Notes: generated by a model not told the origin, from the sequence alone. A DNA stretch of 24,000 nt from Actinomycetes bacterium (GCA_038223055.1 JBBRHF010000004.1:24123-48122); one strand, 5' to 3'. Shown: positions 3,162 to 24,000, numbered from the stretch's first letter. Program-made: numbers and translations.

Positions 3162-3235
3162 GGGCCTATAGCTCAGCTGGTTAGAGCGCTGCCCTGATAA
3201 GGCAGAGGTCAGTGGTTCAAATCCACTTAGGCCCA
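3162..3235 (+). tRNA. ileT: tRNA-Ile (anticodon GAT)
   Basis: Cloverleaf folded by hand. Acceptor GGGCCTA/TAGGCCC, D stem GCTC/GAGC, anticodon stem CTGCC/GGCAG with loop CTGATAA, T stem AGTGG/CCACT with loop TTCAAAT, discriminator A. CCA is not encoded. Confidence 0.95.
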
Positions 3236-3261
3236 CTCCCGCGGCTGACCGGAGGCACTGC

Positions 3262-3453: not shown

Positions 3454-3526
3454 GGGGACGTGGCGCAACTGGTAGCGCACCGCCTTTGCAAGGCGGGGGT
3501 TGAGGGTTCGAGTCCCTTCGTCTCCA
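3454..3526 (+). tRNA. alaT: tRNA-Ala (anticodon TGC)
   Basis: Acceptor GGGGACG/CGTCTCC including the G3:U70 Ala identity pair. D stem GCGC/GCGC. Anticodon stem CCGCC/GGCGG with loop TTTGCAA. T stem GAGGG/CCCTT with loop TTCGAGT. Discriminator A. Confidence 0.95.
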
Positions 3527-3571
3527 CCCAGGGCGACGGCCCGCAGGCCGCTCGGTGTGCTGGCCGGGAGT

Positions 3572-4231
3572 TCAGCCCGACCGACTCGGCAGCCTCGCGG
3601 TGAGAACGTCGGCGCCGCCGAGGGCGGTGACTCCCATCGAGCCGCTGTCCGAGCGGGACAGGGCGGCGGCGAGCACCAACTTCGCGGTTCCATGAACGTC
3701 GGGCCGGAAACTGCCGGCCGGAACCCGCTTGCCGTCCCGGCGGGCCAGCCAGGCTCCGTAGGTGACGCCCGGGTTCAGCCCGCGTACGTCGAGGGTCACG
3801 GCCGTCCCCCAGCCGCGCTGGTCGAGCACCACCCGGGCAGAGGCGCCAGTCGGACTCGCCAGGCGAACGGTCTCACCGTCGGGCCGCTGCCGGCTCAGCC
3901 CGATCACGAAGCCGGCCCCGGTGAACGCTACGGCGATGACCACGGCTGCGACGGCGAGCAGGGCCCGCCGGTTTCCGGTGGACCAGCGTCGCTGCTGGGC
4001 GATCGCGCCGAGCACGCGGTCCAGTGACGGCGCCGGCAGGCTCGGCGGGGGACCCTCGACGGGCACCGCAACGGCCATCGCCGTCACGACCGGACGCAGC
4101 CGAGCCACCTCATCGGCGCAGCCGGGGCACTGAGCGAGGCCGTGTTCGACCCGGGCCGCTTCCTCGGTCGGCAGGTGCCCCAGCAGATAGGGCCCGAGGT
4201 CCTGCGGGCCCAGCCCGCACTCGTGCGTCAT
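3572..4231 (-). CDS. Membrane anti-sigma factor: zf-HC2-like N-terminus, one TM, RskA-like extracytoplasmic domain
   Basis: Internal ATG at 4231 overlaps the sigma-gene stop (ATGA). MTHECGLGPQDLGPYLLGHL...VEHGLAQCPGCADEV gives a His/Cys cluster with H-x4-C-x2-C spacing. TM is ALLAVAAVVIAVAFTGAGFVIGL. The C-terminal segment GVTYGAWLARRDGKRVPAGSF resembles the anti-sigma-K (RskA) domain. The 341-aa ORF in the track is an upstream over-extension into the sigma gene. Confidence 0.75.
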   Translation of the reverse strand: MTHECGLGPQDLGPYLLGHLPTEEAARVEHGLAQCPGCADEVARLRPVVTAMAVAVPVEGPPPSLPAPSLDRVLGAIAQQRRWSTGNRRALLAVAAVVIAVAFTGAGFVIGLSRQRPDGETVRLASPTGASARVVLDQRGWGTAVTLDVRGLNPGVTYGAWLARRDGKRVPAGSFRPDVHGTAKLVLAAALSRSDSGSMGVTALGGADVLTARLPSRSG

Positions 4232-4770
4232 CCGTCCCACCCCATTTCCTCCAGGGCGAGGCGCAGGGCACGCAGGCCGTAGAACGCGCGGCTTCGGGCG
4301 GTGCCCTCGGGGATCCCGAGATCGGCGGCGACATCGGCGTAGGGCCGACCCCGGTAGTAGGTCTCGACCAGCACCAGTCGGTGATCCTCGCGGATGCGCC
4401 GCAGGGCCTCCTCCATCAGCCACACGTCCAGCGACCGGTCGAAGGCGTCTACCTCTGGCGTGTCGCTCTCCCGACGGGGGGCGGGCAGGGCCCGGCTCGC
4501 CCTGGCGCGGACCTCGTCGATGATGACGTTTCGCAAGATCGCGAACAGCCACGGCCGGACCGGCCGGGCTCGATCGTAGCGGTCGGCTGCGCGCCACGCA
4601 CGCAGGAACGTCTCCTGGACCGCCTCTTCTGCCGTGCCACCGTCACCCAGCGCATGGTTCGCGTAGCCGAAAAGCTCACCCGAGTGGGCCTCCCAGGCGG
4701 CGCGCAGGCCGGTGTCGCCGGAGAGGTCAGGTCCCCTCACCCGGGTGCGCTCCTCGCGTCGTAGCGCCAT
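4228..4770 (-). CDS. ECF (group 4) RNA polymerase sigma-70 family factor
   Basis: Region 2 (EEAVQETFLRAWRAADRYD...PWLFAILRNVIIDEVR) and region 4 HTH (LVETYYRGRPYADVAADLGIPEGTARSRAFYGLRALR). Overlaps the downstream anti-sigma gene by 4 nt. GAGGGGGA lies just upstream of the ATG at 4770. Confidence 0.88.
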   Translation of the reverse strand: MALRREERTRVRGPDLSGDTGLRAAWEAHSGELFGYANHALGDGGTAEEAVQETFLRAWRAADRYDRARPVRPWLFAILRNVIIDEVRARASRALPAPRRESDTPEVDAFDRSLDVWLMEEALRRIREDHRLVLVETYYRGRPYADVAADLGIPEGTARSRAFYGLRALRLALEEMGWDG

Positions 4771-5679: not shown

Positions 5680-6546
5680 TCAGGCCGGGTCGATGCCGTC
5701 CTTGATCCGGCGAGCCTGCTCCGGGTCGATCTCCTCCGTAACCGAGCCGGCGGCGGACGCCGACTCGTCCGCAACATCGGCCAGGGCCTCGTCCGGGCTG
5801 GCACCTGCGGCGTCGGCGGCCAGGGAGTCGGCGGCCAGGGAGTCGGCGGCGAGCAGGTCACTTGCCGATGCCGCTGCCACCGGACTCAAGGGCGCCGACG
5901 CGACCGGACTCGGCACCGGAACGCCCGCAGGGTGCAACGAGCCTGTCCCTGTCGAGGCCGTGGGGCGCCCGATCGGCGAGGCCCATGGCTCGGGCTCGTT
6001 GCCGGTGGACCCCACCCATGCCTTCCAGCCGGCCACGGCCGCCCCGATCACGCCGACGAGCAGGAGCAGTTTCCGGCCCCGACGGCGGTTGGGCTTTGGC
6101 GCCTCGATCTCGCCACGAAGTGCGGCAACCGCGGCCGCGCCCCGGGTCTTGGCCTCCCCGCGGACCGGCTCGCTGGCCGCCAGAGCCGCAGCGACGGCAC
6201 CAGCGACCTTGGGGAGCACGTCTCCCTTGACCTTGCTGACGGCGGGCTCGACCTTGGGTGCTGCCCAGTCCAGGGCCGTTCCGACCCTGGGTGCGGCCCA
6301 GTCGCGGGTGGCCTCGACCCTTGGTGCCGCCCACTCAAGGGTGGCGTCGACCTTGGGTGCGGCCCAGTCGCGGGTGGCCCCGACCCTTGGTGCGGCCCAC
6401 TCCAGGGTGGCGTCGACCCTGGGTGCGGCCCAGTCGCGGGCCTCCGACGCCACCGGAGCGACCCTAGCGTTTGCGCGTCGGGTGGTCCGCCGCGCTTCCT
6501 TGCGTAAAGTCGTCATGCGGGACACAAAAGACCTCCGGGTCACCAT
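5680..6546 (-). CDS. Single-pass membrane protein with six 11-residue WAAP(R/K)V repeats (positional analogue of Rv0008c/cwsA)
   Basis: The minus frame has high GC3 and a plausible composition, whereas the two plus-strand ORFs over the same DNA are Arg/Gly/Pro-rich junk. Repeats read DWAAPRVDATLE/WAAPRVGATRD and so on. RRRGRK is followed by the TM LLLLVGVIGAAVAGWKAWV. The tail is Ala/Ser/Pro-rich with DSLAA x3. The start is uncertain: ATG at 6546, or in-frame GTG at 6525 placed 6 nt after GGAGG. Confidence 0.7.
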   Translation of the reverse strand: MVTRRSFVSRMTTLRKEARRTTRRANARVAPVASEARDWAAPRVDATLEWAAPRVGATRDWAAPKVDATLEWAAPRVEATRDWAAPRVGTALDWAAPKVEPAVSKVKGDVLPKVAGAVAAALAASEPVRGEAKTRGAAAVAALRGEIEAPKPNRRRGRKLLLLVGVIGAAVAGWKAWVGSTGNEPEPWASPIGRPTASTGTGSLHPAGVPVPSPVASAPLSPVAAASASDLLAADSLAADSLAADAAGASPDEALADVADESASAAGSVTEEIDPEQARRIKDGIDPA

Positions 6547-10910: not shown

Positions 10911-10950
10911 GACCGGCCCGCAGTGCCGTCGAGGGCGCTGCGGGCCGGTC
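10911..10950. terminator. 13-bp-stem hairpin between convergent trpG and the 4-TM gene
   Basis: GACCGGCCCGCAG tgccgtcgagggcg CTGCGGGCCGGTC, followed by the T-containing tail CCGTGTTCTTGTCGTT. Confidence 0.6.
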
Positions 10951-11008: not shown

Positions 11009-11683
11009 TCAGACCGTGGCCGGGTTGGCCGTGGTGGCGGCGTCGGACCTGACCCGCGGGCCGTCGGCAACCTCGCCATCCTGCTGCGTGGTCTCCGCCG
11101 GCGGCGCGATCGACCGGATCAGCCACAGCACCGGCACCGACGCTTCGGCGAAGGCGGCGATGACCTTGGTCGTGAACCACTCCTGCTCGTTGATCGAGGG
11201 GAACGGGCCCACCTGCGGGACGGGCAGGTAGACGCTGGCGAGGACGGCGCCCAGTCCGCTGACCGACAGCACGACCGCAACCAGCCAGACGTGCTTGTTG
11301 CTGGTCAACATGGCGACGGCCAGCAGAGCGCTGATCACCGCAGTCGCGGCGAACAGCTGGCCCTGGGAGAGCACCGATCCGCCGATACCGAGCTGGATCG
11401 CCAGCTTGGCGTGGATGACCGACGACACCGCCAGCGCGAGTGCGGCGAGCAGTCGGGCTGCGAGCAGCGCCCGCGGGTCACCCGCCGGCCGCTGGGATGG
11501 CTGCGACTCGTCGCCCGGCTCGACGTACGACGGGGTGTCGCTCGACGGCTCAGACTGGTCGATCGACGGCTCGGACCGGTGGACCGAAAGCTCACGTTCC
11601 CGGACGGGGACGTTGATGATCTCTGTCTCTTGGTGTTCGGGGTGCTCTGTCACGGCTGTCTCCTTGCCGACGTGGTCGCTCAT
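11009..11683 (-). CDS. 4-TM integral membrane protein with acidic Ser/Pro-rich N-terminal tail; 4-nt overlap with the multi-cupredoxin gene
   Basis: The ATG at 11683-11681 overlaps the upstream TGA (11682-11680) as ATGA. Four predicted TMs: LLAARLLAALALAVSSVIHAKLAI, LFAATAVISALLAVAMLT, VWLVAVVLSVSGLGAVLASVYL and KVIAAFAEASVPVLWLI. I do not recognise the family. The 258-aa track ORF is an over-extension. Confidence 0.7.
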   Translation of the reverse strand: MSDHVGKETAVTEHPEHQETEIINVPVRERELSVHRSEPSIDQSEPSSDTPSYVEPGDESQPSQRPAGDPRALLAARLLAALALAVSSVIHAKLAIQLGIGGSVLSQGQLFAATAVISALLAVAMLTSNKHVWLVAVVLSVSGLGAVLASVYLPVPQVGPFPSINEQEWFTTKVIAAFAEASVPVLWLIRSIAPPAETTQQDGEVADGPRVRSDAATTANPATV

Positions 11684-14600
11684 GACTGATCGGGTGACGG
11701 GGCGATGGTCGCGGGCTCGCCGGAGCGGGCCGCGATCCGAGCCCGCAGTTGCAGCAGGGTGAGCAGGCCGATGATGAGCAGCCAACCTGTGCTGATGCCG
11801 GCCAGGGCGACCGGGGAGATGGCCGCGACGTGGGTCTTGGCCGGGTGGATGTTCAGAGCCGGTCCCACCACCACCATGCCGAACATGCCGGGGTGGGGGG
11901 TGCAGACGTACTCGATGGTGCCTTCCTTGGTCAGCTTCAGGTTGAACCGCTTCCCCGGCGCCAGCTTGGCGTCGAACGAGTGGTCTCTGGCGGTGACCGT
12001 GTGGGGCAGCTTGCCGATGTTGACCCAGCTGATGGTGTCGCCGACCCGTGCTTGCAACGTGGCGGGGGTGAAGGAGTTGTCCTTGACCTCGACCTCGTAG
12101 GTCTTGGCGATACCGCTGCTCTTCGGAGCCGGTCCGGCTGCGGCGAGCGCGGTCTCGGCGGTCCCGCTGCCGCTGGCCTTGGGGACCGCGACACCGGCAA
12201 GCGCCTTGCCGACCGTCAGCGAGCCATCCATGCCGGGGTGATATGTGCAGACGTACTTGACGGTGCCTACCTTGGTGAGCACGTAGTTGAAGCGCTGGCC
12301 GGGTGCTATCGGTGACTTGTCGAACGACTTGTCCGCGGCGGTCACGGTGTGGGCGATCTTGCCGACGTTGACCCAGCTGATCGTGTCCCCGACGTTGGCC
12401 TTCTGGTTGACCGGGGTGAAGGTCATCTCGTTGACCTTGATCTCGTAGGTCTTGGTCTTGCCCTTGCTGGCCGGGGCCGCGACGGCGGCCTTTCCGCCCG
12501 CTGCGGCACCGGCGCCGGCGCCACCACCGCTGCTGTTGGCGGCCGGGGGCGGTACGGCGACTCCGGCGAGAGCCGCGCCGACCACGAGCGTCCCGTTCAT
12601 CCCGGGGTGGTAGGTGCAGACGTAGGCGAAGGTGCCCTTGGCCCGCAGCGCGTAGTTGTAGCGCTGGCCGGGTGCGATCGGTGACTTGTCGAACGACTTG
12701 TCCGCGGCGGTCACCGTGTGCGGCATCTTTCCGACGTTGACCCAGCTGATCGTGTCGCCGACGCGGGCGTTCACGGACTTGGGTGTGAAGGTGTTGTCGC
12801 CGACCTTGATCGTGTAGGTCTTGGTCTTCCCGCTGGCGGCGGGAGCAGGAGCAGCCTTGCCGGCACCTGCGCCGGCGGCGCCGGCCTTCGCTCCAGGCTT
12901 GGCGGCGGGAGCAGGCTTGATGACCGTGCCGGGCAGTGCCGCGGCGACCACGATCGTGCCGGTCATGTAGGAGTGGTAGGTGCAGACATAGGCGATGGTT
13001 CCGGGCTTCTGCAGCACCGTGGATGCCCTGCCGCCGACGGGGAGGGCGACGTCGAAGCCGCCTACCGCGGTGGCGGTGTGGGGCGCCTTGCCGGTGTTGA
13101 CCCAGGTCACCGTGTCGCCGGCGCGCGCCGACAGGTTGGCCGGGCTGAAGCCCGTGTCGGTGACCGTGACGGTGTGGCTGCCCGGCTTACCGGGGGTGGC
13201 TGGCACCGCTGCCGGGACGGGACCCGCAGCGGCTGCGGGCGGTCCGGGGGCGGCCGCTGCGGCCGGCGGCGCGGCACCGGTGGCGTCCTGGACGATGACG
13301 GTGCCGGACATGCCCGGTGAGTGGATGGTGCACTCGTAGGCGTAGGTCCCGGCCGTCGGGAAGGTGTGGCTGAAGGTCTGTCCGGTGGCCAGGGTTGGGC
13401 TTGCGAACACCTCGGCTGTCTTCGAGGTTACGTCGTGCTTGCCGCTGGTGTTGGTCCAGGTGACGGTGCCGCCGACGGCGATGGTGACCGAGGCCGGGGC
13501 GAACGACTGGCCGGACAGGGACACCGCCGCAGTGGCCGGTGCCGGAGCGCCGGGTGCGGGAGCCGCGGGCGCGGGCGCGGGCGCCGGTGCGCCGGGTGCG
13601 GGTGCCGCGGGTGCGGGTGCCGCCGGCGGCGCGCTGCCGCTGGCGTCCTGGACGATGACGGTGCCGGACATGCCCGGTGCGTGGATGGTGCACTCGTAGG
13701 CGTAGGTGCCGGCCTTCGCGAATGTGTGGCTGAAGGTCTGCCCGGCGGCCAGGGTTGGGCTTGCGAACACCTCGGCCGTCTTCGAGGTTACGTCGTGCTT
13801 GCCGCTGGTGTTGGTCCAGGTGACGGTGCCGCCGACGGCGATGGTGACTGAGGCCGGGGCGAACGACTGGCCGGACAGGGACACCGCCGCAGTGGCTGCG
13901 GCCGGTGCTCCGGGTGCGGGGGCAGGTACCGGAGCGGGGGCGGGGGCGGGGGCGGGGGCGGGGGCGGGGGCGGGTGCGGGTGCGGGTGCGGGGGCAGGCG
14001 CCGGGGCCGGGGCGCCGGCGGCCTGCACGATGACCGTGCCGGTCATGCCGCCGTGGAAGGTGCACTCGTAGTTGAAGGTGCCGGCCGTCGGGAACGTGAA
14101 GCTAAAGGTGTTACCGATCCGCAGGGTCGGGCTCCCGAAGACACCGGCCGGTGTCGTCGAGGTCACGTCGTGGGTGCCGCCGCTGTTGGTCCACGTGACG
14201 GTGCCGCCGACGGCGATGGTGACGGACGCCGGGCTGAACGACTGTCCCGAGAGGGTGACCGCCGCCGTCTTCGGCGCGGCTGCGGCCGGGGCGGCTGCGG
14301 CAGCCGGGCCGGGACCCTGGTCAGACGCGGAAGCGCTACTCACGGTGACGGTTCCCTGCAAGGCCGGGTTGCCCATGTTCTCGTGATCGACGTACGAGTA
14401 GGTCCCCACCTCCTTGAAGGTGTAGGACCAGGTCTGACCTGCGTCCAGGCCGCCGGAGTCCAGCTTGGCCGGACCGGAGGTGCTGTGGATGCGGTGCTTG
14501 CCGCCTTGGGCCGCCCAGGTGACAACGGTGCCAGGGGCGACCGTCACGTCCTTCACCGACAGGCTGGTGCCGATCGTGATCGTCTGGGTGCCCGCCGCGA

Positions 14601-14697
14601 CAGCGGTGCCACCGGCGAAGCCGATCACCGCCGCGACGAGTAGCAGGACACTCAGTCCCGCCGTGCGGACGAGCCCGCTTCTATCCTGGTGACGCAT
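11680..14697 (-). CDS. Exported, C-terminally membrane-anchored poly-cupredoxin: eight tandem blue-copper-like domains linked by Ala/Pro-rich spacers
   Basis: GAGGGAG lies 5 nt before the ATG at 14697. Signal peptide is LSVLLLVAAVIGFAGGTAVA/AG. Domains by nt on the minus strand: D1 14565-14341, D2 14265-14023, D3 13893-13645, D4 13533-13285, D5 13176-12943, D6 12822-12577, D7 12456-12208, D8 12108-11863. D2-D8 each carry H...C-x2-H-x2/3-M, e.g. THDVTS...YECTFHGGM and LPHTVT...YVCTPHPGM. D1 has Tyr in place of the Cys. C-terminal TM is ISTGWLLIIGLLTLLQL (about 11814-11743) followed by RARIAARS. Confidence 0.85.
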   Translation of the reverse strand: MRHQDRSGLVRTAGLSVLLLVAAVIGFAGGTAVAAGTQTITIGTSLSVKDVTVAPGTVVTWAAQGGKHRIHSTSGPAKLDSGGLDAGQTWSYTFKEVGTYSYVDHENMGNPALQGTVTVSSASASDQGPGPAAAAAPAAAAPKTAAVTLSGQSFSPASVTIAVGGTVTWTNSGGTHDVTSTTPAGVFGSPTLRIGNTFSFTFPTAGTFNYECTFHGGMTGTVIVQAAGAPAPAPAPAPAPAPAPAPAPAPAPAPAPVPAPAPGAPAAATAAVSLSGQSFAPASVTIAVGGTVTWTNTSGKHDVTSKTAEVFASPTLAAGQTFSHTFAKAGTYAYECTIHAPGMSGTVIVQDASGSAPPAAPAPAAPAPGAPAPAPAPAAPAPGAPAPATAAVSLSGQSFAPASVTIAVGGTVTWTNTSGKHDVTSKTAEVFASPTLATGQTFSHTFPTAGTYAYECTIHSPGMSGTVIVQDATGAAPPAAAAAPGPPAAAAGPVPAAVPATPGKPGSHTVTVTDTGFSPANLSARAGDTVTWVNTGKAPHTATAVGGFDVALPVGGRASTVLQKPGTIAYVCTYHSYMTGTIVVAAALPGTVIKPAPAAKPGAKAGAAGAGAGKAAPAPAASGKTKTYTIKVGDNTFTPKSVNARVGDTISWVNVGKMPHTVTAADKSFDKSPIAPGQRYNYALRAKGTFAYVCTYHPGMNGTLVVGAALAGVAVPPPAANSSGGGAGAGAAAGGKAAVAAPASKGKTKTYEIKVNEMTFTPVNQKANVGDTISWVNVGKIAHTVTAADKSFDKSPIAPGQRFNYVLTKVGTVKYVCTYHPGMDGSLTVGKALAGVAVPKASGSGTAETALAAAGPAPKSSGIAKTYEVEVKDNSFTPATLQARVGDTISWVNIGKLPHTVTARDHSFDAKLAPGKRFNLKLTKEGTIEYVCTPHPGMFGMVVVGPALNIHPAKTHVAAISPVALAGISTGWLLIIGLLTLLQLRARIAARSGEPATIAPSPDQS
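13262..13920. repeat. Tandem ~300-bp duplication with 360-bp period inside the poly-cupredoxin gene (domains D3/D4)
   Basis: 13262-13560 aligns with 13622-13920, with about 19 mismatches counted by eye (roughly 94% identity; about 96% in the core). The encoded domains differ at only about 5 residues. Confidence 0.9.
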
Positions 14698-15063
14698 GGT
14701 CGCTCCCTCTCATTGCCGGCTCGGCGAGCCACCGGAGTGGGGTCGCCGTTTTGTGTCACCTTGGTAGACCTTCTGTGCTCGACCTAGGGGCTAACGGTTC
14801 GCGAGGCAAGGACCTTTGGCCCCCGCGAGCGTGGATGTTAGGTAAAGCTTTTGCCACGGCAACCATCTGAGGCCACTTTCGGCCGCCGCGAAGCTCCATC
14901 CGGAAGCCATCACCAGTCGGGTTGTGGGGAGTCGTGCCCAAGGGGCACCCACCGATCCCGGCACTATCACAAAAAGTGCATAAAGGGAGAGTACGTCGAA
15001 TCCGGACGCCCCCTTACCGCATGCCGCCGGGTGTGCCCCACACGGCGAAGCGGACCCCGATCT

Positions 15064-15148
15064 GTGTCCCTCAGCCTGCCGTGTCCCTCAGCCCGCCGTG
15101 TCCCTCAGCCCGCTGTGTCCCTCAGCCTGCCGTGTCCCTCAGCCTGCC
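15064..15148. repeat. Five head-to-tail copies of a 17-bp unit GTGTCCCTCAGCC(T/C)GC(C/T)
   Basis: Copies at 15064-15080, 15081-15097, 15098-15114, 15115-15131 and 15132-15148, with 0-2 substitutions per copy. Non-coding: the period is not a multiple of 3. Located between the pknB stop and the poly-cupredoxin start. Confidence 0.95.
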
Positions 15149-15253
15149 GTGGTGACTCGACGCCACCCGCCACGCGGCCTCCACGCGGTTGTCCGCAGTT
15201 CGCTGTCGCCCTGCCGGCAACAGTGTCGGCAGCGCTATAGGTGGCGCGGGTGT

Positions 15254-15281
15254 CCCACCCCCACCCCCACCCCCACCCCCC
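15254..15281 (-). repeat. (CCCCA)n tract; on the minus (sense) strand G3-T-G5-T-G5-T-G5-T-G6, a G-quadruplex / i-motif candidate
   Basis: CCCACCCCCACCCCCACCCCCACCCCCC starts 20 nt 3' of the pknB stop. It abuts the palindrome CCGGCGC-TG-GCGCCGG at 15280-15295. Confidence 0.8.
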
Positions 15282-15300
15282 GGCGCTGGCGCCGGACCGG

Positions 15301-17069
<1,769 letters not shown>

Positions 17070-17073
<4 letters not shown>

Positions 17074-18374
17074 TCGTCGCCTTCCTGCTGGGGCGGATGC
17101 TGCTGGTCTTGCTTGTGCCGGTCACCCGGAGGTTGCCCCGGCTGGGGGCGTGACGGGTCGTCTGGTCCGGTCCCTGCTGGTCCGACGGTAACGGTCCCGG
17201 CGGTGTCACCCGACGAGCCGGGAGCAGTGCACGCCCGGACCAGGCTCATCGTCAGGAGGGCCAGGGCGAGCAGCACGACCGTGGTGGGCAGCCACCGGGA
17301 GCGCCGGCGCGCGGGCGGAAGCTCGAATCCCGGATCGGTGTCGGAACCGACCCGGCCGGGCCCGCCGACCCGCTCGTAGGGCACGGCGATGGGCGGCGGC
17401 TCCTGCGGCGAGCGCGCCGAATTCGGAGAGCGGGCCGCGTCCGACATGTGGGCTGCGTCCGACGTGTGGGCTGCGTCCGACATGTGGGCTGCGTCCGACA
17501 TGTGGGCTGCGTCCGAAAAGTGGGCTGCGTCCGGTACGCCCGCATCCGGTGAGATCGCATCGAGCAGCCCGGCCGCCTCGCGGCCCACGTCCCCGGCGGT
17601 CACCGGCCGGAAGGCAGGGTCCTTGGCCAGCATCCGCATCACGAGGTCGCGGGCCGGCGCGGGAACCGTGGGCGGCAGCTCCGGGGGCGGCTCGCGCACC
17701 TGGGCCAACGCGACGGTGACGGGGGTGTCGCCGACGAACGGCAGCCGCCCGCTCAGGCACTCGTAGGCCACGATGCCAAGGGAGTAGATGTCGCTGGCGG
17801 GGGTCACCGGCCGGCCGCTGGCCTGCTCAGGTGAGATGTAGTGAGCGGTTCCCATGATCGCGCCGGTGCGGGTGAGCGGAACCGAGTTGGCGGCTCGGCT
17901 GATGCCGAAGTCGGTGATCTTGAGTACGCCGTCGGGAGTGACGATCATGTTGCCGGGCTTGATGTCGCGGTGGATGACCCCCTCGAGATGGGCCGCCTCC
18001 AGCGCGAACGCGGCCTGCCCGATGAGGTCGATGCTGCGTTCGGCGTCCAGCGGCCCCTCCCGGGTGATGATCGTCGAGAGGGGCTCGCCGGGCACGAGCT
18101 CGAGCACGAGGAATGGCGCCCCGGCCGCCTCGCCGCCGTAGTCGTAGACCGCCGCGATGCCCGGGTGCGACAGCGCGGCGGCATGGCGCGCCTCGGCCCG
18201 AAACCGCTCGAGGAAGGTCGCGTCCTCGGCGTACTCCCGGCGCAGCAGCTTGACCGCCACCGGCCGGGCGAGCACCTGGTCGGTGGCGGCCCAGACCTCG
18301 CCCATGCCGCCGCCGGCGATGCGTTCGGACAGGACATAGCGCTCGCCGAGGACGACGTGGGTGTCCGATGTCAT
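17070..18374 (-). CDS. pknA: Ser/Thr protein kinase PknA
   Basis: The ATG at 18374 overlaps the pbpA stop (ATGA). GGGMGEVW, VAVK, HRDIKPGN, DFGIS and GTAHYISPEQ. Single TM WLPTTVVLLALALLTMSLV. The 482-aa track ORF is an over-extension into pbpA. Confidence 0.93.
17439..17528. repeat. 18-bp in-frame tandem repeat x5 within pknA (encodes SDAAH[M/T/F] hexapeptides)
   Basis: GTCCGACATGTGGGCTGC repeated at 17439, 17457, 17475, 17493 and 17511, with 0-3 substitutions. It translates on the minus strand as DAAHFSDAAHMSDAAHMSDAAHTSDAAHMSDAA in the juxtamembrane linker. Confidence 0.92.
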
Positions 18375-19819
18375 CGCCCCAACACCGCCCGCATGACGTC
18401 TCGGGCGATCGGTGCCGCGAGCTGGTTGCCGCTGACTTCGGCGGCGCCGCCGCCGTCCTCGATGACGACGGCGACCGCCACCTTGGCGTCCTGCGCGGGC
18501 GCGAACGACACGAACCACGCGTGCGGCTTCTTGCCGCCCCCCTGCTGGGCGGTGCCGGTCTTGCCGGCGACCCGGACGCCGTCGATCTTCGCGTTGGAGC
18601 CGGTGCCCTGCTCGACGACGGTGACCAGCATCTCGGTCAGGGTGCTCGCGGTCTGGGGGCTCATGGCGGTGGAGAGCTCCTTGGGTCGGGTTCGGTCCAG
18701 CACGGACAGGTCAGGAGCCCGCACCTCCTGCACCAGGTGTGGCGCCATCAGGACGCCCCGGTTGGCGACCGCAGCGACCACCATGGCCATCTGCAACGGG
18801 GTCGCCCGGACGTCGAACTGCCCGATCGCCGACTGGGCCGTCTGGGGTGGGTTCAGGTCGGTGGGGATGCGGCTGGCCGCTGCCGGCGTCGGGATCTCGA
18901 CCGTGGTGTTGAAGCCGAACTTGCGGGCCTGGCTCACCAGGGCGTCGGCCCCGAGGTCCAGCCCGACCTTGCCGAACGCCACGTTGCAGGAGCGTTTGAG
19001 CGCGTCCTCCAGCGTGGCGGTGCCGTCGGCGCTGCACGCCTGCCCATCGAAGTTGGGCAGGTTGGTCGAGGTCTGGGGCAGGTCCAGCGACCCGGCGTTG
19101 TCGACCGGCGTGTCGCGCTGGAACTTCCCGCTCTCGAGGGCCGCCGTCGCCGTCACGATCTTGAAGGTGGACCCCGGCGGGTAGGTTCGCCGGGTCGCCC
19201 GGTTCAGCATCGGCTGGCGCGGGTCACCGGTGAGCTTGCTGCGGGCCGCGCGGATCGCCGCCGAGTCGTGCGAGGAAAGCACGTTCGGGTCGTACGACGG
19301 GCTGCTGGCCAGTGCCAGGATCGCGCCGGTCGCCGGCTGGATCGCGACGACGGCTCCCCGGCGCCCCCTGAGCCCCGCATAGGCGGCCTTCTGCGCCGCC
19401 GAGCTCAGCGTCAGCTGCACGCTGCCGCCCTTGGGCTGCTCGCCGGTGAGCAGGTCCATCACCCGGCGGACGAACAGGCTGTCGTCGGTGCCGGACAGGA
19501 TCGTGTTGGCTGTGGACTCGATCTCGGTCGCACCGTAGATGAGCGAATAGAAACCGGTCGCGGGGGCATAGAGCCGCCCGTCGGAATAGGTCCGCTTGAA
19601 CTTGAGCCGGTCGTTGGTCTCGACGCTGGAGGCGATGGCCTTGCCGCCGACGAGGATCGGCCCGCGCTGGCGGGAATACTCCTCCAGGATCAGCCGCGGG
19701 TTGTTCGAGTCGTTGTGCAGCGAGCTCGCCCGAACCACCTGAAGATAGTTCACGTTGAGCAGCAGCAAGGCGAACAGCACCATGACGGCGACGGCGAGGC
19801 GGCGCACGGGGGCGTTCAT
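18371..19819 (-). CDS. pbpA: Penicillin-binding protein A (class B transpeptidase, PBP2-like)
   Basis: The start MNAPVRRLAVAVMVLFALLLLN parallels M. tuberculosis PbpA (MNASLRRISVTVM...). AGGTGG RBS. SxxK (GSTFK), SxN (RSCN) and KTG (GKTGTA) motifs. Confidence 0.93.
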   Translation of the reverse strand: MNAPVRRLAVAVMVLFALLLLNVNYLQVVRASSLHNDSNNPRLILEEYSRQRGPILVGGKAIASSVETNDRLKFKRTYSDGRLYAPATGFYSLIYGATEIESTANTILSGTDDSLFVRRVMDLLTGEQPKGGSVQLTLSSAAQKAAYAGLRGRRGAVVAIQPATGAILALASSPSYDPNVLSSHDSAAIRAARSKLTGDPRQPMLNRATRRTYPPGSTFKIVTATAALESGKFQRDTPVDNAGSLDLPQTSTNLPNFDGQACSADGTATLEDALKRSCNVAFGKVGLDLGADALVSQARKFGFNTTVEIPTPAAASRIPTDLNPPQTAQSAIGQFDVRATPLQMAMVVAAVANRGVLMAPHLVQEVRAPDLSVLDRTRPKELSTAMSPQTASTLTEMLVTVVEQGTGSNAKIDGVRVAGKTGTAQQGGGKKPHAWFVSFAPAQDAKVAVAVVIEDGGGAAEVSGNQLAAPIARDVMRAVLGR

Positions 19820-19835
19820 CGGCGGACCACCTGGT

Positions 19836-21230
19836 TCATCGGCGTACGACCTGGGTCTTGGCGTCATCGATCGGCGCGGCGGGCGGCGGCGCGGGTCGCC
19901 GGGAGGCATCGCTGATCCGCAGCAACACGGCGACCAGGATCCAATTGGCCACCAGCGATGAGCCGCCGTAGGACAGCCACGGCATGGTGAGCCCGGTGAG
20001 CGGGATGAGCCGGGTGACCCCGCCCACGACGACGAAGACCTGCAGGGCCACGCTGAACGCGAGCCCGGCCGCGAGCAGCTTGCCGAACGAGTCGCGGACG
20101 GCCACGGCCGTGCGCAGCCCCCGCTGGACGATGATCGCGTAGACGATGAGCAGCGCCATCAGGCCGGTGAGCCCGAGCTCTTCGCCGATGGCCGCGACGA
20201 TGAAGTCGGTCTTGGCGTAGGGAACGATGTCCGGTCGGCCCTGCCCGAGGCCCTTGCCGAGCAAGCCCCCGGTGCCCATGCCGTAGAGGCCCTGCACGAG
20301 TTGGAAGCTGTCTCCGCGGATGTTGCGTTCGGCGAAGGGGTGCAGCCAGATGTCGACCCGCTGCTGGACGTGGCCGAACATCGTCCACGCGAGGAACGAC
20401 CCGGACATGAACATGCCGATGCCGATCAGCAGCCAGGATCGGCGCTCGGTGGCGATGTAGAGCAGGGCCACGAAGACACCGAAGAACAGCAGCGAGGTGC
20501 CGAGGTCGCGCTCGAACACGAGCACGGCGAGGCTGGCCGCCCAGGCCACGATGATCGGGCCGAGGTCGCGGCCTCGGGGCAGGTCGATCCCGGCGACCCG
20601 GCGGCTAGCCAGCGCAAGCACGTCGCGCTTCGCCACGAGATAGCCGGAGAAGAACACCAGCAGCACCAGCTTGGCGATCTCGCCGGGCTGGAAGGAGAAC
20701 CCCGCGAACCGGATCCAGATGCGCGCGCCGTTGATGGTGGTGCCGATCACCGGCAGCAGCGGGAGCAGCAGCGCCACGATGCCCGCGAGCAGCGCGGTGT
20801 AGGTGAAGCGTTGCAAGATGCGATGGTCGCGTACGACGACGAGGAACAGCACGAACAGCACGACCCCGACGGCGGTCCAGGTGATCTGAGCCGGGGCGGA
20901 GGCGGTGGGCGCGATGTTGCCGAGGCGTCGGGCCCGATCGGCGCCGGCGAGGTCGAGCCGGTGGATGACTGCCAGGCCCAGACCGTTGATCATGGTGACC
21001 GCCGGCAGCAGCACCGGGTCGGCGTCGGGAGCCAGCCGGCGCAGCGCGAGGTGGGCGACCAGGAACAGCCCCGCCAACCCTGCGCCGTAGGTCGCCATGT
21101 CGGTGGGGAGCACCGCGTCGTGGGCCAGGCCGACGGAGGCATAGGCGGCCATCGCCACCCCGAGCGAGAGCACCAGCAGCAGCAGCTCGATGTTGCGGGG
21201 ATGACGTGCGGCCACGCCTCGGGCGCTCAC
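19836..21230 (-). CDS. rodA: SEDS-family peptidoglycan glycosyltransferase RodA/FtsW-like
   Basis: Polytopic membrane protein aligning by eye with M. tuberculosis RodA (RNIELLLLVL..., DPVLLPAVTMINGLGLAVIHRLDL, C-terminal PLTGLTMPWLSYGGSSL). The start is set at in-frame GTG 21230 (464 aa). The 621-aa track ORF runs back through pstP. Start is uncertain by a few codons. Confidence 0.9.
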   Translation of the reverse strand: MSARGVAARHPRNIELLLLVLSLGVAMAAYASVGLAHDAVLPTDMATYGAGLAGLFLVAHLALRRLAPDADPVLLPAVTMINGLGLAVIHRLDLAGADRARRLGNIAPTASAPAQITWTAVGVVLFVLFLVVVRDHRILQRFTYTALLAGIVALLLPLLPVIGTTINGARIWIRFAGFSFQPGEIAKLVLLVFFSGYLVAKRDVLALASRRVAGIDLPRGRDLGPIIVAWAASLAVLVFERDLGTSLLFFGVFVALLYIATERRSWLLIGIGMFMSGSFLAWTMFGHVQQRVDIWLHPFAERNIRGDSFQLVQGLYGMGTGGLLGKGLGQGRPDIVPYAKTDFIVAAIGEELGLTGLMALLIVYAIIVQRGLRTAVAVRDSFGKLLAAGLAFSVALQVFVVVGGVTRLIPLTGLTMPWLSYGGSSLVANWILVAVLLRISDASRRPAPPPAAPIDDAKTQVVRR

Positions 21231-21270
21231 CGGTGCACCATGTCCTTGTCGGTAGCTCCAGATGGGCTGC

Positions 21271-22770
21271 TCATCGGGGGCCGCCGCAGTCGAGGGCTTC
21301 CGGGCTGGTCCCGGTCGGCGAGGGCACCGGCGTGCCGGTGGCGTCCGGGGCCGGCGATCCGCCCGAGGGTGGCGGTGTCGTGACCGGGGCGGGAGTCGGG
21401 GTGACCGGGGGGGGCGTGAGCTGCGCGGGCGTGCCCCGCGGCGTGCCCGGGGCCAACGTGACCGGGGTTGGTGCCGTTGCCGGGGTGGTGGGGGTGCCGG
21501 TCGGCGCCGGAGTGCCGCCGCCGCCGCCGGGGCTGGGGCTGGGGCTCGGGCTCGGGCTCGCCGTGGCGCGAGCGCACAGCGTGGCCTGCTCGCGCAGCGT
21601 GCTGATGATGCGCTTGGCCGCCCCCAGGTTGCTGGCGGTGATCTCGGCCTCGACTCTGGCCCGGTGGTAGGCCGGGAGGTCGCGCAGTGCGACGTCCTCA
21701 CGTTCGTACAGTTTCGAGGTCTTGACCGGGCCGACGTCCTGGGTCAGGCCTCGGTAGATCGCGACCTCGGACCCGGCGGGGGCGACGTAGAACTGCTGCT
21801 GGGACCAGCGCCACGCCCCGTAGCCGCCGCCGCCGAGCAGGGCCAGCACGAGCACGATCCCGAGGGCGGTGAGCCAGCGACGGCGCGGGGGCGGCTCGTC
21901 GGTCTCTTCGTCGGGGTCGCTGTCCTGGTGCGGCGCAGGTGCGAGCGCAGCAGCCTTCGCGGCCGCTGAGTCGGTGGTCGAGCGGCGCACCGGAGCGCGG
22001 GCGGCGGCGCCGACGGTGACCGGGATCGCCGAGGGGCTGGCCTCGACGTCGACGACGTCGGCCACGATCGCGGTGATGTTGTCGGGTCCGCCGCCGCGCA
22101 GGGCGAGCTCGACGAGCCGCTCAACAACGGCGGCCGGGTCGCCCGGGTCGCCCGGGTCGGCGAGGGCCTCGTGCAGGGTCTCGTCGCTGACGACGTTGGA
22201 CAGGCCGTCGCTGCAGAGCAGATAGCGGTCACCGGCCCTGGCCTCGCGGACCGACAGGTCGAGCTCGACGTCGCGCCCGTCGAGGGCGCGCAGGATCAGC
22301 GACTTCTGCGGATGGCTCTCCGCCTCCTCCGCGGTGATGCGTCCCTCGTCGACGAGGGTTTGCACGAACGTGTGGTCCTTGGTGATCTGGGTCAGGTCGC
22401 CGGCGCGCAGCAGGTAGCAGCGCGAGTCCCCGACGTGCACGAGCCCGAACCGCGAGCCGGCCCGCAGCAGTGCGGTCAGCGTGGTGCCCATGCCGAGAAG
22501 GTCGGGATCGCCGGCGACCATGTCCCGCAGGTGGCCGTTGGCGATGCTCACTGCCGCGGAGAGCGCCGCGAGCAGGTCCGACCCGGGCGAGTCCTCGTCC
22601 AGCTTGGACAGCACGCTGATGGCGAGGGAAGAAGCAACCTCGCCCGCGGCATTGCCGCCGACCCCGTCGGCGACGGCTAGAAGGCGCGGACCGGCATAGC
22701 CGGAGTCCTCGTTGCCGTCGCGGACCAGGCCCACGTCGGACCGGGCGGCGAACCGTAGCGCGAGCGCCAT
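21271..22770 (-). CDS. pstP: PP2C-family Ser/Thr phosphatase PstP with TM and Pro/Thr/Ser-rich extracellular tail
   Basis: MALALRFAARSDVGLVRDGNEDS, LLAVADGVGGNAAGEVAS, GMGTTLTA, LLCSDGLSN and GGPDNITAIVADV match mycobacterial PstP. TM WLTALGIVLVLALLGGGGYGAW. ATG at 22770 lies 4 nt after the fhaB stop. Confidence 0.94.
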   Translation of the reverse strand: MALALRFAARSDVGLVRDGNEDSGYAGPRLLAVADGVGGNAAGEVASSLAISVLSKLDEDSPGSDLLAALSAAVSIANGHLRDMVAGDPDLLGMGTTLTALLRAGSRFGLVHVGDSRCYLLRAGDLTQITKDHTFVQTLVDEGRITAEEAESHPQKSLILRALDGRDVELDLSVREARAGDRYLLCSDGLSNVVSDETLHEALADPGDPGDPAAVVERLVELALRGGGPDNITAIVADVVDVEASPSAIPVTVGAAARAPVRRSTTDSAAAKAAALAPAPHQDSDPDEETDEPPPRRRWLTALGIVLVLALLGGGGYGAWRWSQQQFYVAPAGSEVAIYRGLTQDVGPVKTSKLYEREDVALRDLPAYHRARVEAEITASNLGAAKRIISTLREQATLCARATASPSPSPSPSPGGGGGTPAPTGTPTTPATAPTPVTLAPGTPRGTPAQLTPPPVTPTPAPVTTPPPSGGSPAPDATGTPVPSPTGTSPEALDCGGPR

Positions 22771-22774
22771 GTCG

Positions 22775-23278
22775 CTATTTCCGCAACTCGATGACGGTCT
22801 TGCCAATGCGGATCGGCACGCCGATCTTCACCGGGGTGGGGCCGTTGACTTTGGCCCGGTCGAGGTAGGTGCCGTTGGTGGAGCCCATGTCCTCGACCAT
22901 CCACTGACCGTCGAGCGGGTAGAGCCGGGCGTGGCGGGTGGAGACGTAGTCGTCGTCGAGCACGATCGTCGAGTCCTGGGCGCGGCCCAGGGTGACCGGT
23001 GTCTCGTTCAGCCGCACGCTCGTCCCGGACAGCGCGCCGTGGGTGACCACCAGGGTGCTGGGCACGCCGCGGCGACCCTTGGCGGGCTTGGCCGGCTTGT
23101 CGGCCTTGCTCTGTCGCGGTGGGCGGGCGGTGGGGACCCCGGTTCGTTGCGGGCCTCCCCGTGACGCGACCCGGCGGCCGAACAGGTCCGATCGCATCAC
23201 CGACACCGCAGTCAGCACGAACAGCCACAGGACGGCGAGGAAGCCGAGCCGGATGATCGTCAGCGTGAGCTCGGACAC
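22775..23278 (-). CDS. fhaB: FHA-domain membrane protein FhaB/FipA
   Basis: N-terminal TM LTIIRLGFLAVLWLFVLTAV. C-terminal FHA domain TLGRAQDSTIVLDDDYVSTRHARL...STNGTYL. GTG at 23278 lies 5 nt after GAGGTGAG. Confidence 0.92.
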   Translation of the reverse strand: MSELTLTIIRLGFLAVLWLFVLTAVSVMRSDLFGRRVASRGGPQRTGVPTARPPRQSKADKPAKPAKGRRGVPSTLVVTHGALSGTSVRLNETPVTLGRAQDSTIVLDDDYVSTRHARLYPLDGQWMVEDMGSTNGTYLDRAKVNGPTPVKIGVPIRIGKTVIELRK

Positions 23279-23283
23279 CTAGC

Positions 23284-24000
23284 TCACCTCGCGCCGTCGT
23301 GGAATACCAGGACCGTGCTGCCCATCAGGATCTTGGCGCCGTTCTCGAGCCGGGCCTGCTCGACGCGACGGCCGTCGACCACCACTCCGTTGGTTGACCC
23401 ATTGTCCAGGAGGGTGACATCGCCGCCCTGCATGCGGATGTCGGCGTGGTGGCGGGACACGCCGAGATCTTCGATCCGCAGGTCGTTCTCGGTGCCCCGA
23501 CCGACCCGGGTCAGCGCCTTGGTCAGCGCGTACGTCGTGTCGCCGACCTGCAGCCACGGCGTGCCCCGGCGTGGGGCGACCTCGGCCGGGCGCTGGCCGT
23601 CCTGCGCGTCCCAGCCCCCGGGCCGCGCGCCGCCGGTGGCCGCGCTGCGCACCCGCAACCGGCCGGTGTCCAGCCCGTCGTCGCGCTCGAACTCCACCGT
23701 GACCGGGCCGAGGAAGGAGTAGCCCTGCTCCTCGGCGTGCTCGCGCACCATTGAGGACAGCTCCTCGGACAACGGCTCGGCGTAGACGATCAGACGCTCG
23801 TGATCGCGCTCACCCAGCGATACGGTGAACCGGTTGGGCACCATGGTTCGTCCCCGCGCGACGATGGCGGCCCGGTCGTCGCACTCGCGCTGCAGGGCGC
23901 TGGCGATCTCCACCGGCTGCACCTCCGCCTTGAATGCGCGAGCGAACGGTCGGTTGACCATCTCCTCGATGCGGCGCTCGAAGCGCTGCAGGACGCCCAC
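23284..24000 (-). CDS. fhaA: FHA-domain protein FhaA (DUF3662 N-terminal domain plus C-terminal FHA)
   Basis: GVLQRFERRIEEMVNRPFARAFKAEVQPVEIASALQRECDDRA is the typical FhaA N-terminus. C-terminal FHA is RVGRGTENDLRIEDLGVSRHHADI...STNGVVVDG. The first codon is GTG at 24000-23998, at the window edge. This matches the N-terminus of streptomycete homologues, so the gene is probably complete, but an upstream start cannot be excluded. Confidence 0.88.
   Translation of the reverse strand: MGVLQRFERRIEEMVNRPFARAFKAEVQPVEIASALQRECDDRAAIVARGRTMVPNRFTVSLGERDHERLIVYAEPLSEELSSMVREHAEEQGYSFLGPVTVEFERDDGLDTGRLRVRSAATGGARPGGWDAQDGQRPAEVAPRRGTPWLQVGDTTYALTKALTRVGRGTENDLRIEDLGVSRHHADIRMQGGDVTLLDNGSTNGVVVDGRRVEQARLENGAKILMGSTVLVFHDGAR

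Follow-up and report, generated by a model that had tools for sequence, protein, structure and literature searches.

Textbooks present blue copper proteins as electron carriers of a single domain, and multihaem cytochromes are credited with nearly all long-range extracytoplasmic electron transfer. What, then, is the role of a gene that encodes eight cupredoxin modules on one membrane-anchored polypeptide? We addressed this question for a chain gene found in a 24,000-nucleotide stretch of DNA from an Actinomycetes bacterium (GCA_038223055.1 JBBRHF010000004.1:24123-48122), which at its full length is called the window here. An earlier note on this DNA had read the gene product as an electron relay or a swinging-arm carrier array, with copper buffering as an alternative. 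From domain searches, structure prediction and the comparison of orthologous loci, we read the chain as the subunit that carries electrons in an extracytoplasmic quinol:cupredoxin pathway that uses copper and no haem, an assignment to which we give a probability of about 0.55.

The multi-cupredoxin chain and its membrane partner

The open reading frame at 11680-14697 on the minus strand begins with ATG and encodes a 1005-aa product. The parts of the chain gene and the gene directly downstream are listed below, with ligands given for the type-1 (T1) copper sites; the module types A to D are introduced in the next section.

14703-14709, minus strand: Shine-Dalgarno sequence GAGGGAG, 6 nt 5' of the ATG (read from the sequence)
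11680-14697, minus strand: multi-cupredoxin chain gene, 1005 aa, cap-A3-B-C2-D plus transmembrane (TM) anchor (open reading frame; Pfam and NCBIfam cupredoxin models; orthologues of 50-58% identity)
14593-14697, minus strand: Sec-type signal peptide, aa 1-35, hydrophobic core 7-25, cleavage-like site between AVAA and G (hydropathy; AlphaFold2 helix 7-25; motif checks)
14332-14592, minus strand: D1, the "cap" module, aa 36-122, His68 kept, Asp104 in place of the Cys ligand, without a T1 site (eighth stretch of the amicyanin model)
14014-14286, minus strand: D2, aa 138-228, type A, ligands H176/C212/H215/M218
13639-13905, minus strand: D3, aa 265-353, type A, ligands H301/C336/H339/M343
13279-13548, minus strand: D4, aa 384-473, type A, ligands H421/C456/H459/M463
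12910-13194, minus strand: D5, aa 502-596, type B, ligands H540/C572/H575/M578
12541-12831, minus strand: D6, aa 623-719, type C, ligands H660/C694/H697/M700
12178-12465, minus strand: D7, aa 745-840, type C, ligands H783/C817/H820/M823
11851-12111, minus strand: D8, aa 863-949, type D, membrane-proximal, ligands H899/C932/H935/M938, amicyanin-like loop CTPHPGMFG
11728-11814, minus strand: C-terminal TM helix, aa 962-990, followed by a basic cytoplasmic tail RARIAAR... (hydropathy; AlphaFold2 helix 962-990)
11009-11683, minus strand: conserved partner gene with four TM helices (4-TM), 224 aa, variable cytoplasmic N-terminus (overlap, identity, AlphaFold2)

The chain belongs to the blue-copper cupredoxin domain family by hidden Markov model threshold, by ligand set and by its predicted Greek-key beta-sandwich fold. 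Cupredoxin_1 (PF13473; E = 1.4e-61, 205 bits against a cut-off of 27) and Copper-bind (PF00127; E = 2.4e-57, 192 bits, cut-off 21.2) each matched seven stretches, so that the lack of domain hits named beforehand as a refutation was not seen. The NCBIfam amicyanin model TIGR02657 matched eight (E = 2e-70, 233 bits, cut-off 110), and D1 taken alone gave a sub-threshold Copper-bind match (E = 0.021). Seven of the eight modules carry the complete His/Cys/His/Met T1 set, D1 being the one without it, and all of these ligands lie at exactly the residues read in the earlier note. The chain contains only seven cysteines, every one within a C-x2-H-x2/3-M loop. In an alignment of 24 homologues, the copper ligands are invariant or nearly invariant.

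Amicyanin, plastocyanin and pseudoazurin share the fold and the ligand set with these modules, and the D8 loop CTPHPGMFG aligns with CTPHPFMRG of amicyanin at the same spacing, as had been claimed. However, each of those proteins is one soluble domain of ~100 aa that works with a dedicated partner, for example methylamine dehydrogenase. An identity as amicyanin was ruled out: the TIGR02657 cut-off was passed only by summing the eight stretches, the chain has eight modules, and no mau genes occur among its neighbours in the window.

The AlphaFold2 model of the chain, built on 24 homologues, has eight all-beta modules with a predicted local distance difference test score (pLDDT) of about 90-96 (92-96 for D1), an N-terminal helix at residues 7-25 and a C-terminal helix at residues 962-990. 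The seven linkers (15-36 aa each, 193 residues together) fall below a pLDDT of 50 and consist of Ala, Pro and Gly to 59-97%; the composition expected for them was thus found, whereas the expected length of 20-45 aa was not. Because the predicted template modelling score (pTM) of the model is 0.27, no fixed inter-domain packing is predicted, and the modules would resemble beads on a string. A Foldseek search with the whole model matched multi-cupredoxin proteins at poor global superposition (TM-score about 0.1-0.16), and the closest solved sequences to the chain modules are single T1 domains (amicyanin, plastocyanin and pseudoazurin). Multicopper oxidases and ceruloplasmin, which match the whole model best in structure, likewise have several cupredoxin folds per chain, but they are compact and hold trinuclear type-2/type-3 (T2/T3) clusters at domain interfaces, whereas the chain has disordered linkers, independent modules and no HxH motif anywhere. 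We therefore ruled out this identity.

Since the chain has a signal peptide at one end and a TM helix with a basic tail at the other, its topology puts every module outside the membrane. The reading frame, hydropathy and the AlphaFold2 model bear out the layout proposed earlier, from the signal peptide through eight modules to the C-terminal helix and basic tail. Motif checks of the signal peptide region gave no RR motif and no lipobox, and neither an LPXTG/LAXTG sorting signal nor a lipobox Cys was found in the chain; a sortase-anchored or lipoprotein surface protein was ruled out on these grounds. The chain is predicted to be an extracytoplasmic, membrane-anchored array of T1 copper modules, and we infer that these bind copper.

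The partner gene lies directly downstream, its ATG overlapping the chain stop codon (ATGA) in an arrangement typical of translational coupling. It is 49-53% identical to the genes found downstream of chain orthologues, and none of its 41 homologues has a Pfam family. The partner itself gave no match in Pfam or NCBIfam and none among PDB folds (best E = 1.5). AlphaFold2 predicts four helices, and the invariant residues are H91, W133, Y152, G159, P160, E166, W169 and R190. A metagenome scan with the partner as query returned six short loci. That this conserved gene overlaps the chain gene by ATGA speaks for a 4-TM protein that pairs stoichiometrically with the chain in the membrane.

Module order and the iron-sulphur/NrfD cassette of the orthologues

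Sixteen orthologues (50-58% identity, 626-893 aa) share the signal peptide, a Cys-less first module, 4-7 T1 modules and the C-terminal TM helix. When each of their T1 modules was scored against the modules of the window protein, they fell into four types (A, B, C and D), four paralogous kinds that follow one fixed order in every orthologue: Cys-less cap, A (1-3), B (0-2), C (1-3), D, anchor. The smallest form, cap-A-B-C-D, has 626 aa, and the window form is cap-A3-B-C2-D. Chain length varies only where modules of a given type are duplicated, which, together with the fixed order, argues for positional roles of the modules. D3 and D4 are 92% identical in amino acids and 86-92% in nucleotides with a 360-nt period, and D3 appears from these values to be a recent duplicate of D4. 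The number of such near-identical modules needs confirming because short-read assembly breaks inside the chain gene: a 1.3-kb short-read contig found through the neighbour P0029 ends inside D8. The exact 1005-aa chain was absent from a collection of 15 billion proteins, in which P0029 is present.

The idea of a generic swinging-arm array agrees less well with this comparison. The lipoyl domains of 2-oxoacid dehydrogenase E2 are also small carrier domains on Ala/Pro-rich linkers, but they are near-identical repeats serving the same active sites, whereas the chain combines four module types in a conserved order. Its modules are not equivalent repeats, and four ordered types with a cap fit a positional relay better.

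The cap retains the first His (His68) and has an invariant Asp at the position of the Cys ligand. Its signature, HR-x-RS-x-SGP..FDSG-x-L-x-PG ... Y-x-D-x-R-N/D ... Y-x-GTI, is kept in 19 of 22 homologues and was found in 44 of 146 diverse cluster representatives. A physical gradient runs along the chain: D5-D8, the modules nearer the membrane, are basic with a net charge of +2 to +7 and Gly/Ala/Lys linkers, and the distal D1-D4 are neutral to slightly acidic with (Ala-Pro)n linkers. Fully stretched, the chain could by our estimate reach several tens of nanometres. We define here a capped poly-cupredoxin orthologous group, whose members have a signal peptide, a cap with Asp in place of Cys, T1 modules ordered A-B-C-D, a TM helix at the C-terminus and a 4-TM gene coupled to the chain gene; the window protein has all of these.

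In nine orthologous loci, which represent at least eight different genomic neighbourhoods, an iron-sulphur (FeS) protein gene of the Fer4_11 family and an NrfD gene lie immediately upstream of the chain gene, and in most of them the 4-TM gene follows downstream to give a four-gene unit. The flanking genes differ and are unrelated between loci, and the unit encodes no catalytic subunit and no other redox partner, which leaves the chain as the sole candidate redox partner of the FeS/NrfD pair. The FeS protein (272-287 aa) resembles PsrB/NrfC, DsrO, QrcC and the FeS domain of ActB, and its twin-arginine motifs (TRRSVL, SRRDFL) place it on the same membrane side as the copper modules. Among PDB sequences, the cassette NrfD (about 655 aa) matches only ActC of the four solved Alternative Complex III (ACIII) structures (E = 7e-42 to 2e-34). 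The solved ActC chains (466-486 aa) align to NrfD residues 12-441 and have no counterpart of a conserved C-terminal extension of ~220 aa, in which a TM helix, an extracytoplasmic immunoglobulin-like domain (weak Big_1 and Big_3_5 matches) and another TM helix follow one another (e.g., L003 9250-9921). This extension may be a docking platform.

ACIII, a quinol oxidoreductase, reduces the membrane-tethered cupredoxin auracyanin (PMC10873879, PMC7439408). The auracyanin/ACIII systems of Chloroflexus and Roseiflexus and the orthologous cassettes are alike in having a tethered extracytoplasmic T1 cupredoxin fed by quinol-oxidising ActC (NrfD-type) and FeS subunits. However, auracyanin is a single domain, whereas the chain has seven T1 modules and a cap, and the cassettes lack the haem subunits ActA and ActE, the second NrfD protein ActF and the large molybdopterin-like N-terminal domain of ActB, while their NrfD carries the extra extension. 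With one FeS and one NrfD protein and no cytochrome genes called, membership of the cassette in ACIII was ruled out; by analogy, it would work like ACIII and auracyanin as a system of its own.

Other known systems resemble the chain less closely. Halocyanin, sulfocyanin and other archaeal blue-copper proteins are membrane-anchored as well and replace c-type cytochromes where soluble cytochromes are few. A survey of archaeal blue-copper proteins reports forms that have two T1 centres but lack T2/T3 sites, with no functional prediction, and classes proteins of one to three domains only, without arrays of 4-9 T1 sites that have a cap and a C-terminal anchor (PMC9038741). The multihaem c-type cytochromes of Gram-positive envelopes are comparable as a functional analogy only: many one-electron centres on one anchored polypeptide, which could bridge the membrane and the outer wall. 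They differ from the chain in cofactor and fold, and the chain centres are not packed at fixed short distances and have much higher expected potentials, so that the likely acceptors differ. In the searchable full-text literature, with many subscription journals outside reach, neither tandem T1 arrays nor a link between NrfD and cupredoxins turned up, and copper and cupredoxin go unmentioned in a review of NrfD-like subunits. The statement that no system of this architecture has been characterised thus agrees with the literature searched.

The architecture itself is not rare. HMMER, run exhaustively against 1.84 billion cluster representatives (50%-identity clusters), gave 34,100 matches at E<=1e-3 and 293 at E<=1e-30, many of the latter being anchored arrays of 4-9 T1 sites. 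Of the best 150 matches, 70 carry four T1 sites or more and 17 carry six or more, with nine as the maximum; a C-terminal hydrophobic anchor is present in 103. Judged from these sequences, the tandem T1 array is widespread, with the window protein (seven T1 sites) at the upper end and not unique. The search for proteins of four or more repeats that the earlier note had suggested thus yielded many, with FeS/NrfD genes at the nine orthologous loci and the distant arrays standing alone. The chain family is abundant in soil metagenomes, where it is annotated just as "plastocyanin". Another uncharacterised class of arrays is represented by two giant metagenome proteins, P0121 (3670 aa) and P0214 (2512 aa), with at least eight plastocyanin-type modules and PKD domains.

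A scan of species-representative genomes found relatives in Kineosporia and in metagenome-assembled genomes (MAGs) of Actinomycetota. Two Kineosporia genomes (L009 9869-11212; L010 67-1260) encode a short three-module form, in which the last module lacks the Cys (YADPAHEGM), the tail has acidic repeats and FeS/NrfD genes are not nearby; it looks like a decaying or repurposed copy. A multicopper oxidase adjoins the chain gene in two lineages only, that of L001 and Kineosporia. In one MAG (L001 1271-12804), the FeS-NrfD-cupredoxin-4TM cassette is directly preceded on its own strand by a two-component system, a multicopper oxidase with a twin-arginine translocation (Tat) signal (704 aa) and a membrane protein of 373 aa. 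In L010 (67-3911), an oxidase 76% identical to that of L001 and a related membrane protein flank the Kineosporia chain gene. This multicopper oxidase is a possible terminal partner.

Surroundings of the chain gene in the window

The window is an oriC-proximal actinobacterial region in which the chain gene lies between pknB and a trpG-like gene. On one side are gyrA, two tRNAs, ppiA, a rhomboid protease and the trpG-like amidotransferase, and on the other the conserved fhaB-pstP-rodA-pbpA-pknA-pknB block. A functional link to pknB as a family-wide trait was ruled out, as the kinase is a neighbour in none of the nine orthologous loci. The two-gene unit of chain and partner is bordered by the following elements.

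10911-10950, no strand assigned: 17-bp perfect GC-rich hairpin between the convergent partner gene (ends 11009) and trpG-like gene (ends 10885)
14698-15300, minus strand: 600-bp spacer from the pknB stop to the chain start, with an AT-rich, promoter-like patch near 14960-15000 (sequence)

The hairpin is likely a bidirectional terminator that closes the unit. Judging by the AT-rich patch, the chain/partner pair probably has its own promoter; a scan of the pknB-chain spacer with the sigma-70 consensus found no site, and an Rfam search found no regulatory RNA near the chain gene. The spacer also contains a 17-nt tandem repeat at 15064-15151 (plus-strand unit GTGTCCCTCAGCCTGCC, 5.2 copies, 94% matches), which could act in regulation or have been left behind by recombination. 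Just 3' of the pknB stop lies a (CCCACC)4.5 run (15254-15280), and its minus-strand GGGTGG repeats could form a G-quadruplex.

Farther out, positions 15301-24000 on the minus strand hold a cell-division and signalling block of pknB (three PASTA domains), pknA, pbpA, rodA/ftsW, the PP2C phosphatase gene pstP and fhaB; because the longest open reading frames of rodA (621 aa) and pstP overlap, both genes probably start further downstream than these frames suggest. Genes for tRNA-Ile(GAT) (3162-3236) and tRNA-Ala(TGC) (3454-3528) lie downstream of gyrA, and no rRNA gene is found beside them. The product of 3572-4597 (minus strand) has a weak RskA-like anti-sigma-K C-terminal domain (E = 1.7e-5, under the Pfam cut-off), and 5680-6546 (minus strand) encodes a DUF5324 protein. 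Several open reading frames of 200-350 aa between 2160 and 10906 match no family and may be shadow frames of high-GC DNA.

Proposed electron route, competing explanations and significance

The route that we propose starts from features established here, namely the architecture and topology of the chain, its conserved ligands, fold and module order, the partner gene and the cassette of the orthologues. After Sec export and cleavage of the signal peptide, the C-terminal helix would retain the chain in the membrane and would probably associate with the co-translated 4-TM partner, and the eight modules would reach outward on their Ala/Pro/Gly linkers. In the family, the membrane NrfD/ActC-like subunit would oxidise menaquinol and pass electrons to the Tat-exported four-cluster FeS subunit on the outer membrane face. 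From there, electrons would enter the membrane-proximal type-D module and move outward through C, B and A via tethered collisions, and the distal Cys-less cap would presumably dock a high-potential acceptor, for which a multicopper oxidase, a copper nitrite reductase or a terminal oxidase are candidates. We infer the direction of flow, the point of entry, the acceptor and, from the orthologues, the wiring of the chain in the window to a quinol module. Met-ligated T1 copper sites are expected to have high potentials, which would make the step from FeS to copper downhill and low-potential mineral acceptors unlikely. The comparison with multihaem cytochromes made in the earlier note thus holds as a functional analogy but meets a thermodynamic limit, with Fe(III) oxides unlikely targets.

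Several points weigh against this route. Homologues of the FeS and NrfD proteins are absent from all 24 kb of the window (tblastn, E<=1e-5), with pknB upstream of the chain gene instead, so the ActC-like NrfD and FeS genes that stand beside the cupredoxin gene in the nine orthologous loci do not do so here. An electron-transfer role, as suggested before, gains independent support from those nine loci but not from a quinol module in the window. The cassette encodes no terminal partner, and the adjoining multicopper oxidase is confined to the two lineages described above. Electron transfer between modules across linkers of 15-36 aa is assumed in our scheme, and AlphaFold2 predicts no stable domain contacts (pTM 0.27). 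Finally, distant arrays such as P0017, P0018 and P0022 stand alone, without FeS/NrfD genes, so that an array can evidently work with other partners.

Some of these points favour the chief rival, in which the chain and its 4-TM partner are uncoupled from the quinol module in this genome. They would then, still tethered, shuttle or buffer electrons between other redox enzymes outside the membrane; the bcc complex or a different dehydrogenase could be the donor, for instance, and a copper nitrite reductase, a multicopper oxidase or an aa3 oxidase the recipient. The missing FeS/NrfD genes, the stand-alone multi-cupredoxin chains of other lineages, and the multicopper oxidase beside the L001 cassette and the L010 Kineosporia short form all agree with it, as does the role of pseudoazurin and azurin as classical donors to the copper nitrite reductase NirK. 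On the other hand, the FeS/NrfD genes are kept in all nine other orthologous loci and may sit elsewhere in this genome, and no NirK, multicopper oxidase or oxidase gene lies within the window. We regard such an orphan role as improbable overall, although it is the strongest competitor of the quinol-linked route. Electron uptake in the opposite direction, in which the chain collects electrons from an extracellular donor (Mn(II), Fe(II) or phenolics), possibly via an oxidase, and delivers them to a terminal oxidase or uphill to quinones by a reversed NrfD module, seems more doubtful still. Rusticyanin-type cupredoxins do serve electron uptake in acidophilic iron oxidisers, a multicopper oxidase adjoins the gene in two lineages, and the distal cap could be a donor-binding module. 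However, transfer from high-potential T1 copper to FeS and menaquinone would, by typical potentials, be strongly uphill; multicopper oxidases send electrons internally to O2 and export none; and iron- or manganese-oxidation genes are not conserved in the cassettes.

Copper buffering or resistance, with the array sequestering Cu(I)/Cu(II) in the envelope like CopI-type cuproproteins, is the least probable explanation, and this alternative of the earlier note found little support. Seven predicted copper sites per chain and a weak similarity to the CopI model (E = 1.8e-18) speak for it, but the chain reaches only 66.9 bits against the 280-bit cut-off of that model (NF051440), and a protein with one copper for every ~90 aa would store the metal poorly. 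The chain has no His/Met-rich tracts besides the T1 ligands; no cop, cso or cus genes occur in the window or the orthologous loci; and linkage to a respiratory-type FeS/NrfD module would be unexpected for a copper sponge. An identity as a CopI copper-resistance cuproprotein was ruled out, since the score is below the cut-off and the cop context is absent.

A bolder form of the quinol-linked pathway, which we hold only tentatively, is a haem-free respiratory branch widespread in Actinomycetota. In such a branch, a minimal ActBC-like menaquinol dehydrogenase would feed a modular copper wire (D, C, B, A, cap), the length of which is tuned by domain duplication to span the thick wall; the acceptor would be extracellular or wall-associated and of high potential, and the Cys-to-Asp cap would be a new docking or catalytic end-module.

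The conserved A-B-C-D order and the cap yield testable predictions, namely stepwise potentials along the chain, electron entry at module D and docking at the cap, and the modular design could suit engineered protein wires. A copper wire that spans the wall would, if true, be the copper counterpart of the multihaem-cytochrome conduits. The conserved chain, which in related bacteria is linked genetically with an ACIII-like quinol module, suggests a route based on copper alone for respiratory electrons across the Gram-positive envelope, and it would explain how some actinobacteria without soluble c-type cytochromes could serve extracytoplasmic copper enzymes.

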